Made by a program: the position numbers and the translations under genes. A DNA stretch of 63,441 nucleotides, filler included, from Thermodesulfobacteriota bacterium (lineage in GTDB: Bacteria; DASVDK01), in NCBI GenBank assembly GCA_036381125.1. It is 5 parts of 5 records of this genome, joined end to end, with 100 filler letters (N's around TTAATTAATTAA, not from the genome) between each part and the next. Parts side by side here need not be neighbours in the genome. Positions count along the whole stretch, not along the records: positions 60,523 to 63,441 come from DASVDK010000293.1; 4 more parts are not named here. One strand, given 5' to 3'. The stretch's first letter is position 1; each line of letters opens with the position of its first letter. Below the pieces are notes generated by a model, which saw only the letters and a list, made by a program, of their open reading frames with translations, had not been told where the DNA came from and searched no databases. This document shows, piece by piece, positions 57,669 through 63,441 of this stretch.

Positions 57669-57768
57669 NNNNNNNNNNNNNNNNNNNNNNNNNNNNNNNN
57701 NNNNNNNNNNNNTTAATTAATTAANNNNNNNNNNNNNNNNNNNNNNNNNNNNNNNNNNNNNNNNNNNN
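57669..57768. other. Artificial contig linker
   Basis: N-run with TTAATTAATTAA. Confidence 0.99.
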
Positions 57769-60422: not shown

Positions 60423-60522
60423 NNNNNNNNNNNNNNNNNNNNNNNNNNNNNNNNNNNNNNNNNNNNTTAATTAATTAANNNNNNNNNNNNNNNNNNNNNN
60501 NNNNNNNNNNNNNNNNNNNNNN
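60423..60522. other. Artificial contig linker
   Basis: N-run with TTAATTAATTAA. Confidence 0.99.
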
Positions 60523-61721
60523 GAGCCGAGCGCCAGCTCGACCTCCCCATCGTGGAGGACGACGGTCGGGGCCATCATGCTGAACACGCGCAGCCCCGGC
60601 TCGTGGCGGTGGTAGCCGAGCGGGTTGAGGTCCTGCTCGCCGAGCATGTTGTTGAGGTGGAGGCCGGTGCCCGGGATGACGACGCCCGAGCCCGAGCCGT
60701 TCGAGCAGGTGACGCTCGCGCACGCCCCGTCGTCGTCGAGCACGGCGATGTGGGTCGTCGAGCCGAGCCGGCCGGCCTCGTGGTCGAGCGCGGCGGCGGC
60801 GAGGAAGCGCTCGAGGTAGCCCTCGCTGTGGAGCCCTAGGACGAACTCCTCGGTCCGCATCCGGTTCGCGCACGCGCTCGCCTCGACGAACGCGGCCACG
60901 TCGGCGACCGCCCCGCGCCGCTCGAGCAGGCCGAGCGCGTACGCGATGAGGATGCCGCCCGACGACGGCGGCGGGTTGGTGAGCACGCGCCGCCCCCGGT
61001 AGGCGGTCTCGGCGGGGCGCCGCTCGACCGGCTCGTAGGCGGCGAGGTCGGCCTCGCTCACCAGCCCACCGTGCTCGAGCAGCCAGGCGCTCGCGGCGCG
61101 GCCGACGTCGCCGCGGTAGAGGAAGCCCGGGCCCTCCGTCCCGAGCCGCTCGAGCAGGTCGGCGAGCTCGGGCTGGCGGAGCCGCTCGCCCTCGCGCAGC
61201 GGCCGCCCCTCCGGCTCGTACAGCGCGGCGCCCTCGGGCGTGGCGGCGAAGACCGGGCTGAGGATCTGGTGGAGGTACTCCTGCATCCGCGTCAGCGGCA
61301 CGCCCTTGCGTGCGGCCGCCGCGGGCGCGCCGACGAGGTCGGACAGCGACGCGGTGCCGAAGCGCGCGAGCGCCGCGGCGAGCCCGGCGGGCGTCCCGTA
61401 GACGCCGCAGGAGGACGGCCCGACGTGGAAGACCTGCGTGGCGTCCTCGGAGAAGACGACCTCGACCGGCACGAGCGGCGCCGGCGGGGCGACCGCGTCG
61501 CGCCCGGGCGCGGCGACGAAGAAGTCGAGCAGGTGGTCCTCGCCGTCGGCGGTGTGGACGAGCATGAAGCCGCCCGCGCCGAGCCCGGTGAGGGCCGGCT
61601 CGGCGACGAACGACATGAGCACGGCGGCGACCGCGGCGTCGACGGCGTTGCCGCCTTCGCGCAGCACCTGCGCGCCGGCCTCGGCGGTCAGCGGATGGCC
61701 GGCTGCGACCACCCCACCCAT
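60523..61721 (-). CDS. ggt: Gamma-glutamyltransferase family protein (3'-partial)
   Basis: GGNAVDAAVA, TGLGAGGF, PPPSSGG, STTH catalytic Thr, LNNMLGE, SMMAPT. Confidence 0.9.
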
Positions 61722-61727
61722 GTCGTG

Positions 61728-61733
61728 AACCTA
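61728..61733 (-). promoter_or_regulatory. -10 box for a leaderless ggt transcript
   Basis: TAGGTT-N6-ATG, no SD. Confidence 0.5.
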
Positions 61734-61794
61734 CCCGGTGCGGCCCCCTCCGGCGCGGAGGGCGGGGCGCCGGGACGCTCCCCGGCGTCCGGGA

Positions 61795-63264
61795 TTACCG
61801 GCCGCCGGGGATGAACTCCGGAACGGAAAGCTCCTGGAGGCCGTTCGCGGGCTCGCTCCGCTCGCGCTGCGGGGCGCGGCTGACCCGCGGCTCGCGGTCG
61901 GCCTCGCGGGCCGCCACCACCGCCGGAGCCGCCTGACGCTGGGCCGGGCGCTCGCCGTAGCCGGTGGCGACGACGGTGACCCAGACCTGGTCGACGACGT
62001 TCTCGTCGACCATCGCGCCGAAGATGATGTTCGCCTCCGGGTGGGCCGCCTCGCTGACCGCGCGCGCCGCCTCGTTCACCTCCCAGAGCGAGAGGTCGCG
62101 CCCGCCGGTGATCGACAGCAGGATCGACTTCGCCCCGTCGACCGAGGTCTCCAGCAGCGGCGACGCCACGGCGGCCTGGGCCGCCTCGACGGCGCGGTTC
62201 TCGCCGACGCCCATGCCGATGCCGAGCAGCGCGTGGCCGGCCGACGACATGATCGTGCGGACGTCCGCGAAGTCGAGGTTGATGAGCCCCGGCAGCGTGA
62301 TGAGGTCGGAGATGCCCTGCACGCCCTGGCGAAGGACGTCGTCGGCGACGCGGAACGCCTCGACCATCGACGTCTTCTTGTCGAGCACGGTGAGCAGGCG
62401 CGAGTTGGGGATGACGATGAGCGTGTCGACCTCGCCGGAGAGCTCCTCGATGCCGCGCTCGGCCTGATCGGAGCGGCGCGAGCCCTCGAAGGCGAACGGC
62501 TTGGTGACGATGCCCACGGTCAGCGCGCCGAGCTCGCGGGCGATGCGCGCGACGACCGGCGCGGCGCCCGTGCCCGTCCCGCCGCCGGCGCCCGCGGCGA
62601 TGAACACCATGTCGGCGCCCTTGAGCAGCGCCTTGAGCTGGTCGTGGGACTCCATCGCCGCCTCGCGGCCGAGCTGCGGGTTCGAGCCCGAGCCCAGCCC
62701 GCGGGTCAGCTCGGCGCCGATGTGGAGGGTCGTGTCGGCGTTCGAGGTCTGGAGCGACTGGAGGTCGGTGTTGACCGCGATGAAGTCGACGCCCTCGACG
62801 CCGGCCTCGATCATCCGGTTGACCGCGTTGACGCCCGCCCCGCCGACGCCGACGACCTTGAGGATCGGCTGGCCGACCGGCTCGGGGGTGAGCTGGACCT
62901 GCGGCTCCTCGCGCCCGTAGCGCGGCTGCGCGGGCTTGTCGAGGATGTTCTCGGGGATGTCGGCCGAGAAGACCTGGCGGAGGCGCTCCTCGGGCGTGCG
63001 CACCTGCCGCGCCGGGCCGCGCTCGGGCTCGCGCTGCGACGGCGGCGCGGGGCGGAGCTGCTCCTCGGCCGGCGGCGCGGAGGCGGCGGGCGTCTGACGG
63101 CGCACCCCGCCCTCCTGCGGGGGCTTGACGCGCGGGCCGTCCTGCTCGGTGTCGAGCTGCTGCTGGCGCGGAGCCGGGATGTCGCCGAGCCCCTCCTCCT
63201 CCGTCTTGCGGAAGAGCGCCGCGAGCGGACCCTCGCGCATGCTCGCCCGCTTACCGCTTGCCAT
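61795..63264 (-). CDS. ftsZ: Cell division protein FtsZ with ~132-aa N-terminal extension
   Basis: [35 protein letters not shown]-terminal [17 protein letters not shown] before ATG 63264. Confidence 0.95.
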
Positions 63265-63441
63265 TTGCGAGAACCTCCTCAGCCAGCCGTCGGTAGGCGT
63301 AGGCCGCCTTGCCGTCCGGGTCGTACTTGAGCACCGACATGCCCTTCACGGGCGCCTCGGCGAAGCGCACCGTCTTGGTGATGCGCGAGGCGAAGACACG
63401 GTCGCCGACGTTCTCCTCGAGGATCTCGATCGCCTCCTTGG
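63251..63441 (-). CDS. ParA/Soj family ATPase, C-terminal part (5' runs off window)
   Basis: Manual translation ...[48 protein letters not shown]; stop overlaps ftsZ start by 14 nt. Confidence 0.88.

Follow-up and report, generated by a model that had tools for sequence, protein, structure and literature searches.

A ParA-family ATPase gene overlapping a second ftsZ gene in an actinobacterial class: a candidate two-protein module for positioning division

In bacteria, ATPases of the ParA/MinD type serve as general engines of positioning; in Caulobacter the ParA-family ATPase MipZ acts directly on FtsZ to place the division ring. To our knowledge every known case has an adaptor between the ATPase and the Z-ring, namely MinC, ParB (for MipZ) or PomX and PomY. 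Here we describe a locus at the right-hand end of a window of 63,441 nucleotides (the whole stretch of DNA that was analysed), in which the end of a gene for a ParA-family ATPase, named parAz here, overlaps the start of an ftsZ gene, named ftsZ2, whose product carries a conserved basic peptide at its extreme N-terminus and may be positioned by the ATPase.

ParA-activating partners are described as having a conserved basic N-terminal peptide followed by an unstructured region, a stretch which, when “grafted onto an interaction domain”, can yield an activator, with the activator belonging to the transported cargo (PMC7993993). The short N-terminal peptide of ParB, with hydrophobic residues around a central Arg or Lys, binds a pocket located on the ParA dimer's edge and triggers ATP hydrolysis, its central arginine being held by Y81, E82, D110 and E117 of M. 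xanthus ParA (PMC12462528). A second ParA that does not work with ParB, called ParA2, PldP (Cg1610 of C. glutamicum) or Rv1708-MSMEG_3743, is reported from “all actinobacteria” and connected with septum placement (PMC4255298; 10.1101/2025.07.02.662783; PMC10482377), and the partner of this orphan ParA was still “yet-to-be-identified” in 2025 (10.1101/2025.07.02.662783).

The parAz-ftsZ2 locus and its distribution

On the minus strand of the window ftsZ2 is an intact open reading frame (ORF) of 489 amino acids (61795..63264), which starts with an ATG (“cat”) at 63262-63264 and matches the Pfam families Tubulin (PF00091, 1.8e-47, 162.6 bits with a cut-off of 33, residues 135-294) and FtsZ_C (PF12327, 2.5e-31, 108.3 bits with a cut-off of 27, residues 343-435). 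The 3' end of parAz lies on the same strand (63251..63441, coding frame 63251..63439), encodes the last 62 residues of the ATPase in a frame that is open at the window end, and closes with a TAA (“tta”) at 63251-63253, i.e. 14 nt within ftsZ2; the overlap of parAz stop and ftsZ2 start (63251..63264, minus strand) reads directly as ATGGCAAGCGGTAA. The Shine-Dalgarno sequence of ftsZ2, GAGGAGG (“cctcctc”, 63274..63280, minus strand), is inside the parAz coding sequence, 9 nt 5' of the ATG, and similar GGAGG-containing stretches precede the ftsZ2 ATG at the orthologous loci whose upstream DNA was inspected. No Pfam family matches the 62-amino-acid fragment by itself; it shares 95% identity with residues 194-255 of an ortholog that is complete at 255 residues (L039:7247-8011). 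An earlier, sequence-only reading of this DNA had described a ParA-family C-terminus ending in TAA 14 nt inside the ftsZ start, with the ftsZ Shine-Dalgarno sequence within that upstream frame, and both observations were borne out, the family assignment by the identity to the ortholog. Recovery of the full upstream gene, which the same reading had called for, did not succeed, as the N-terminal ~193 residues are absent from the assembly and the Walker A motif is readable in orthologs only; the remainder of parA was sought across the window's own genome, yielding only the 62-amino-acid end and a 45%-identical fragment of another ParA.

The parAz-ftsZ2(-ggt) locus is nearly universal in, and within our samples restricted to, the actinobacterial class that holds the closest genomes. 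In an even sample of 151 genomes of this class (the named records being Thermoleophilaceae and Solirubrobacteraceae), two FtsZ matches were found in 139 genomes, three in 7, one in 4 and none in 1 (146 of 151 with two or more), matches here not being equal to copy numbers, since the third match of one genome is a frameshifted gene. Exactly one ParAz ortholog, at a threshold of E<=1e-80, was present in 145 of the 151, and the five genomes with one or no FtsZ match were all without ParAz. Across the phylum, 23 of 301 evenly sampled genomes had a ParAz ortholog, all 23 being in the class sample. The first loci came from a collection scan that returned 80, ten of which match the query from its first residues and belong to Solirubrobacteraceae, Thermoleophilaceae or unclassified actinobacterial metagenome-assembled genomes (MAGs); in all nine of these that have upstream DNA the ParA frame ends inside the FtsZ start. 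With one further locus (L063) and with 20 loci of a long and 10 of a short form of FtsZ2, these nine make up 40 fetched loci with upstream DNA, and parAz is directly upstream of ftsZ2 in 40/40. A comparison by eye of the coordinates in part of the rows showed parAz and ftsZ2 abutting on one contig in 28 further genomes, and an apparent exception (G110) is a contig that breaks off within the FtsZ linker, the start that encodes the peptide still following parA.

The parAz-ftsZ2 overlap implies, from its sequence, translational coupling, and it is not due to chance: in 39 of the 41 ParA-linked loci, that of the window included, parA runs 4-29 nt into ftsZ2 before its stop, with 14 and 17 nt as the usual lengths. 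At the remaining two the start pattern of the script failed, yet the peptide is present; at L158 the start, and hence the overlap (44 nt), was mis-assigned by the script, and the peptide reads MEKRASMH.... The survey of parA-ftsZ adjacency proposed in the sequence-only reading therefore came out in favour of a conserved two-gene module, with parAz directly upstream at every fetched locus that has upstream DNA and an upstream gene that is of the ParA family (AAA_31, 2.7e-60 for an ortholog).

Downstream of ftsZ2 the loci differ. The long-form loci have ggt in 20/20 cases and the short-form loci in 0/10; in the short form scpA is directly downstream in 10/10 and ftsZ2 starts 17 nt before the parAz stop. 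In the window ggt, which the sequence-only reading had also named as the downstream gene, codes for a gamma-glutamyltranspeptidase (PF01019, 2.5e-77) and lies at 60523..61721 on the minus strand. The start of the contig removes the C-terminal part and leaves 399 N-terminal residues; ggt is a syntenic neighbour, probably outside the mechanism discussed below. The short-form gene order (L142-L160, e.g. L144:2-6499) is queA-tgt-yajC-parAz-ftsZ2-scpA-...-pseudouridine synthase, which resembles the actinomycete parA-scpA neighbourhood with ftsZ2 inserted. In long-form loci one or two genes for ArsA-like P-loop ATPases (PF02374) are divergently oriented just upstream of parAz (for example L033:6024-7226, L042:4982-7098 and L129:5157-6224). 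L063, a contig of 3059 bp labelled as an uncultured Bifidobacteriaceae MAG, has parAz with a 4-nt overlap (GTGA) onto a peptide-bearing FtsZ2, and both proteins fall, with long branches, into the clades of FtsZ2 and ParAz; it is probably a mis-binned contig or a divergent lineage.

By its sequence ftsZ2 is a second FtsZ paralog with its catalytic motifs intact, beside the ftsZ of the division and cell wall (dcw) cluster. The other ftsZ lies in or beside mur/ftsW genes at 14/14 loci examined, and for two genomes Pfam bore out the context murF-mraY-murD-ftsW-murC ... ftsZ. For ten genomes both FtsZ loci were fetched (neither match reaching the N-terminus), and in 10/10 one copy follows murC and the other ParAz. 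The claim that this ftsZ is outside the dcw cluster is upheld by its flanks, parA and ggt, and by the dcw copy being a different gene in related genomes; that it might be a second specialised FtsZ agrees with the 146 of 151 genomes with at least two FtsZ matches and the copy after murC in 10/10, and a dcw ftsZ, whose presence the sequence-only reading had proposed to check, was found in every genome examined for it. That reading had offered a coupled module and a second FtsZ as alternatives, and at the genomic level both are true together. The possibility that FtsZ2 is the sole FtsZ, relocated from the dcw cluster, was rejected, as the class keeps the dcw copy. Three genes, namely rpsB, soj and the dcw ftsZ, are each split in two frames in MAGs from long reads (G041 C1:2808066-2808549, C1:3472246-3473083; L117:500-1427), most likely through assembly frameshifts rather than as pseudogenes.

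In a 107-row FtsZ tree (47 of the 154 FtsZ rows left out by thinning the outgroup to one unnamed row in two and one named row in four) FtsZ2 forms one clade (99 SH-aLRT) within the actinobacterial FtsZ clade (99). A 38-row tree under a site-heterogeneous model gave 79/92 for the FtsZ2 branch, 100/100 for the Actinomycetota FtsZ clade and a weak 61/79 for the branch with FtsZ2 and the class dcw FtsZ on one side, so that an origin of FtsZ2 by duplication, at the root of the class or earlier, seems likely.

The window itself is a chain of MAG contigs joined by runs of N around TTAATTAATTAA spacers (including N runs at 60440-60522 and near 57717 and 60471), and ORFs that run into X/N stretches are contig-end artefacts. 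Only 60523-63441 is physically linked, this being a single contig of 2919 bp (C293), and nothing to its left in the window is linked to it. Elsewhere in the same assembly contig C336 (L002) carries another FtsZ of 424 amino acids, 58% identical and with no N-terminal extension, followed by a histidine kinase. The single genome of the same genus in the relatives set has one FtsZ match, of the C336 type, and the other 39 relatives are related at domain level only. In the 107-row FtsZ tree the C336 protein pairs with the same-genus relative (100) among other phyla, far from Actinomycetota, and the C293 protein nests within Thermoleophilaceae sequences (96). Compared with its counterparts in five Thermoleophilia-group genomes, the window's RpsB reaches only 50-55% identity. 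The closest matches of the C293 FtsZ are a metagenomic protein (92%) and a protein labelled Thermoleophilaceae (84%), and it is 60-71% identical (best tblastn segment) to ten full-length loci of named Thermoleophilaceae and Solirubrobacteraceae records. Because of the FtsZ tree placement, the single FtsZ of the sister genome, the RpsB divergence and the closest FtsZ matches, we judge from sequence that C293 is almost certainly a mis-binned Thermoleophilaceae fragment, foreign to its MAG; horizontal transfer is a less likely source than mis-binning. That both FtsZs are native to the window's organism was considered and is unlikely, given the grouping of C336 with the sister, the one FtsZ match of the sister and the 50-55% identity of RpsB. 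The practical point is that C293 almost certainly does not belong to the MAG where it was binned and that the window copy of the locus is truncated.

FtsZ2, its N-terminal peptide and ParAz

The GTPase core and C-terminal domain of FtsZ2 (residues 135-435, 61960..62862 on the minus strand) were delimited by Pfam and by an AlphaFold2 model built from a 51-sequence alignment (mean pLDDT 72.5), in which the FtsZ core at 135-434 is confident. The GGGTGTG signature and the T7 loop NLDFADV (N-x-D-x-x-D) are invariant both in 36 and in 51 aligned FtsZ2 sequences, that of the window included. The alignment places a C-terminal linker and a conserved C-terminal peptide after the core (61798..61959, minus strand, the peptide at ~61807-61833), and the C-terminal ends DVPEF, DIPSF or PSFL are kept in all three FtsZ2 lineages, resembling the end of the dcw paralog (LDIPSFLRDR). 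This looks like a canonical peptide of the tether type (e.g. for SepF) and FtsZ2 looks ring-competent.

At the other end of the protein residues 1-24 (63193..63264, minus strand) form a conserved N-terminal peptide, a candidate tag for docking to and activating ParAz, modelled as a helix at residues 13-23 (block pLDDT ~64). The residues M1, R6, S8, M9, G12, L14, L17, F18 and T21 are invariant in both the 36 and the 51 aligned sequences, and positive charges within residues 1-21 are at K5, R6, R10, R19 and K20. The peptide is present in 118 of 120 database homologs and reads M-A-D-R-P-S-M-K-D-G-L-S-E-L-F-R-R-T in the short form. Between it and the core lies a linker (residues 25-134, 62863..63192, minus strand), predicted to be disordered from its pLDDT and composition (P 18%, E 15%, R 15%, A 10%) and bearing one conserved short helix; residues 27-85 are modelled as unstructured (pLDDT <50), and the helix (91-99, pLDDT ~74) falls in a second conserved segment (residues ~88-105, window 62950-63000) that only long-form FtsZ2 has. 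The distance from peptide to core is 104-190 residues in the 118 homologs and ~20 in the short-form lineage. A basic extreme N-terminus, a disordered arm and a polymer-forming core are together a layout which, on sequence and model, fits the class of ParA activators that work through an N-terminal peptide.

ParAz is, by its motifs, a complete ATPase. The orthologs are 252-267 amino acids long with a mean column identity of 73% (35 sequences), and one of them matches the Pfam families AAA_31 (2.7e-60) and CbiA (3.4e-28). The deviant Walker A motif NQKGGVAKTT is invariant, including the Ala of KGGVAKT, and is accompanied by a motif 2 (DxDPQGN) and a Walker B motif, the residues K14 (signature lysine), K19 (Walker A lysine), D41, D43, N47 (motif 2) and D125 (Walker B) being present in 35/35. 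The C-terminus has no extra helix and no MinD-type extension, and the match to the MipZ family (PF09140, 9.6e-14) covers only profile positions 1-137 of 262, which is the shared P-loop half.

The same genomes have a separate rsmG-soj-parB operon (with a ParB profile match in 4 of 5 genomes) whose Soj is 41-43% identical to ParAz, and the gene next to parAz is ftsZ2 at every locus, not parB. In the ParA tree the FtsZ2-linked, parB-linked and scpA-linked proteins fall into three clades that each reach a bootstrap of 100%, and their branching order lacks support (alternative grouping 87/69). Of the tree that the sequence-only reading had envisaged, this one covers the Soj-type ParAs only, and in it ParAz stands as a clade of its own. 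In the 4/4 actinomycete genomes with at least two ParAs the best match to ParAz is the ParA adjacent to scpA (45-48%) and not Soj (39-42%). Cg1610 and Rv1708 are also adjacent to scpA. The scpA-linked actinomycete ParAs have the Walker A motif KGGVGKTT, unlike the KGGVAKTT of ParAz, which is common to ParAz, its best match in the PDB (4pfs/5if9, E ~1e-62) and the third ParA of one actinomycete. The best matches and the synteny with scpA speak for orthology between ParAz and the scpA-linked ParAs, the Walker A motif speaks against it and the tree gives no supported order; parAz may be kin to the orphan actinobacterial ParA2/PldP/Rv1708 proteins. The third actinomycete ParA just mentioned (L166, G198:C3:43157-46903) sits immediately upstream of a gene for an L,D-transpeptidase (YkuD) and may stand for an orphan ParA family of its own with a link to the cell wall. 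A very divergent third ParA (KGGTGKTT, 38-40% identical to ParAz, branch length 1.8) occurs in 4 of 5 reference genomes (L171-L174, G041-G044).

When ParAz was aligned to the PDB chain 8ray, the four residues that hold the ParB arginine in M. xanthus ParA could be mapped in the 35 orthologs. At the position of Y81, 29 have Y and 6 have F; 34 have D at that of E82 and 34 have D at that of D110, and at that of E117 all 35 have A. Three of the four arginine-pocket residues are thus kept and the fourth is always replaced, as one would expect of a peptide site of a related kind that differs in specificity and avoids cross-talk with ParB. The pattern of the FtsZ2 peptide also resembles the ParB N-termini of the same genomes, a resemblance seen by eye only. 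That the peptide was derived from ParB is an idea we dropped, as the peptide profile retrieves no ParB N-terminus; the functional analogy is kept.

A possible positioning mechanism and its alternatives

Because of the coupling, the strict co-occurrence of the two genes, the activator-like peptide, the largely retained pocket and the absence of MinC in five genomes, we propose that FtsZ2 is, through its N-terminal peptide, both the cargo and the ATPase activator of ParAz, which would thereby position a division filament; from sequence and analogy we consider this somewhat more probable than its negation. ATP-bound ParAz dimers would sit on the nucleoid like other Soj-type ParAs and would capture the flexible N-terminal arms on FtsZ2 polymers. 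The docked peptides would stimulate the ATPase, as the N-terminal peptides of ParB, PomX, McdB and TlpT do, and the resulting gradient of ParAz depletion would move the FtsZ2 assembly along the nucleoid or park it there. That assembly could seed or guide the division ring, by co-assembly with the dcw FtsZ and/or through SepF on its C-terminal peptide, and parAz-ftsZ2 might in this way select the division site in genomes where no MinC was found. With the MinC_C profile MinC was found in 0/5 genomes (MinE not being searched for), and SepF was found in 5/5. The direct action of the ATPase on this FtsZ, which the sequence-only reading had put forward, is something we still infer from sequence and analogy, and it is better motivated now by the invariant peptide of the ParA-partner type. 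More tentatively, the FtsZ polymer itself may be the cargo and activator of a nucleoid-bound ParA, making a two-protein, adaptor-free, self-positioning filament in a Min-less class, and by extension FtsZ, or something bound to it, may be the target of orphan ParAs of the PldP/Rv1708 type; this wider proposal is possible and, to us, rather doubtful.

Several observations weigh against the proposal that FtsZ2 is cargo and activator of ParAz. One genome (G167), the sole such case among the 151, lacks a ParAz match at E<=1e-80 although FtsZ is matched twice. The DNA binding of ParAz is assumed from its family membership, and the helix of the peptide is modelled with modest confidence (block pLDDT ~64). 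A hidden Markov model (HMM) of the FtsZ2 peptide gave, against 11,280 frames from the fetched loci, no match outside FtsZ2 better than E=2.7 and no ParB in the top 25, and near the orphan ParAs of four actinomycete genomes it found nothing (best E 1.6, 727 frames). The pocket comparison, finally, depends on 8ray presumably being M. xanthus ParA 21-274 D60A (offset 19), which we take from its DMAPQGN motif and its length.

The alternatives differ in whether the two proteins touch and in what follows if they do. It is unlikely, in our view, that there is no contact between ParAz and FtsZ2, in which case the peptide would be a membrane anchor, a site for another partner or a tag for degradation or regulation, and the overlap would serve to co-express a ParA related to the chromosome or to SMC-ScpAB. 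The neighbourhood speaks for this, as scpA is downstream in 10/10 short-form loci in the order parAz-ftsZ2-scpA and the scpA-adjacent ParA is the best ParAz match in 4/4 actinomycete genomes, and mycobacterial Rv1708 is reported to interact with ScpA and ParB (PMC10482377). The peptide is, moreover, a short predicted helix with a hydrophobic face; its hydrophobic moment is however modest (maximum 0.47), its mean hydrophobicity is about zero or negative and an acidic run follows it, which would make it a poor membrane anchor. The peptide, the overlap and ParAz are also conserved together while linker length, downstream gene and C-terminus vary, which speaks against this reading.

If the proteins do meet, ParAz could bind FtsZ2, by its peptide or its core, and inhibit polymerisation in the manner of MipZ, so that a gradient anchored at the nucleoid or the pole sets the site of assembly, and we regard this as quite unlikely. 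The coupling and co-occurrence apply to it equally, ParAz has a partial match to the MipZ family in Pfam (9.6e-14, positions 1-137 of 262), and no other member of the ParA family than MipZ is known to make direct contact with FtsZ (MipZ is also mentioned in PMC10482377). That match is nonetheless far weaker than the one to AAA_31 (2.7e-60) and is confined to the shared P-loop half, MipZ needs no tag on FtsZ, and a basic N-terminal peptide on a flexible arm is the signature of an activator or cargo rather than of an inhibitor's target (PMC7993993). It seems to us improbable, and the least probable of these possibilities, that the pair interacts in the service of another process, such as specialised septation, cell shape or a nucleoid-associated filament, with the dcw FtsZ alone carrying out division. 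The dcw FtsZ is indeed kept in every genome examined for it, and FtsZ2 has long extra regions including the second conserved helix at 91-99; set against this, FtsZ2 retains a canonical C-terminal peptide (with SepF in 5/5 genomes) and all of the GTPase and T7 residues.

Comparison with known positioning systems

The full-text literature on FtsZ with ParA in this class, and on FtsZ paralogs with N-terminal extensions, gave no description of such a module (subscription journals not being covered). If the proposal of FtsZ2 as cargo and activator of ParAz is true, this operon, present across the class and with the tag of a ParA partner borne by an FtsZ, would be the simplest such positioning system, and the activating N-terminal peptide would prove to be a module that a cytoskeletal polymer can also carry. 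The proposal further gives a specific, testable hypothesis for the choice of division site in Min-less Actinomycetota and for the role of the orphan actinobacterial ParAs.

MipZ differs in being an inhibitor anchored by ParB that needs no tag on FtsZ, and ParAz matches its profile over the P-loop half only. The orphan ParAs (ParA2/PldP/Rv1708) share a linkage to scpA that is echoed by the short-form order parAz-ftsZ2-scpA; they differ in that the scpA-linked ParAs form a clade apart from ParAz and in that their host organisms have one FtsZ, without the peptide. In PpfA-TlpT and McdA-McdB the component belonging to the cargo likewise bears an activating N-terminal extension (PMC7993993), whereas the cargoes are chemoreceptor arrays and carboxysomes, not a cytoskeletal polymer, and there is no sequence relation.

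The resemblance to ParB–ParA lies in the peptide pattern, as judged by eye, and in the three of four arginine-pocket residues present in ParAz, but FtsZ2 is without ParB domains or parS logic and the equivalent of E117 is Ala in 35/35 ParAz. In the PomXYZ system of M. xanthus the nucleoid-bound ParA/MinD ATPase PomZ positions a large cargo that promotes Z-ring formation, with PomX and PomY as activators, and PomX begins with a conserved peptide that bears positive charges and leads into an unstructured stretch rich in Ala and Pro (PMC7993993), a layout that FtsZ2 shares. Here, in contrast, no PomX- or PomY-like adaptor is evident in the parAz operon (no search having been made for PomX/PomY homologs), the peptide is on FtsZ itself, there are two proteins instead of three plus FtsZ, and the organisms are Actinomycetota and not Myxococcota. 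By analogy the module would therefore work most like PomXYZ or ParB–ParA while being a member of neither, as it has no adaptor, carries its tag on FtsZ and belongs to a different lineage.

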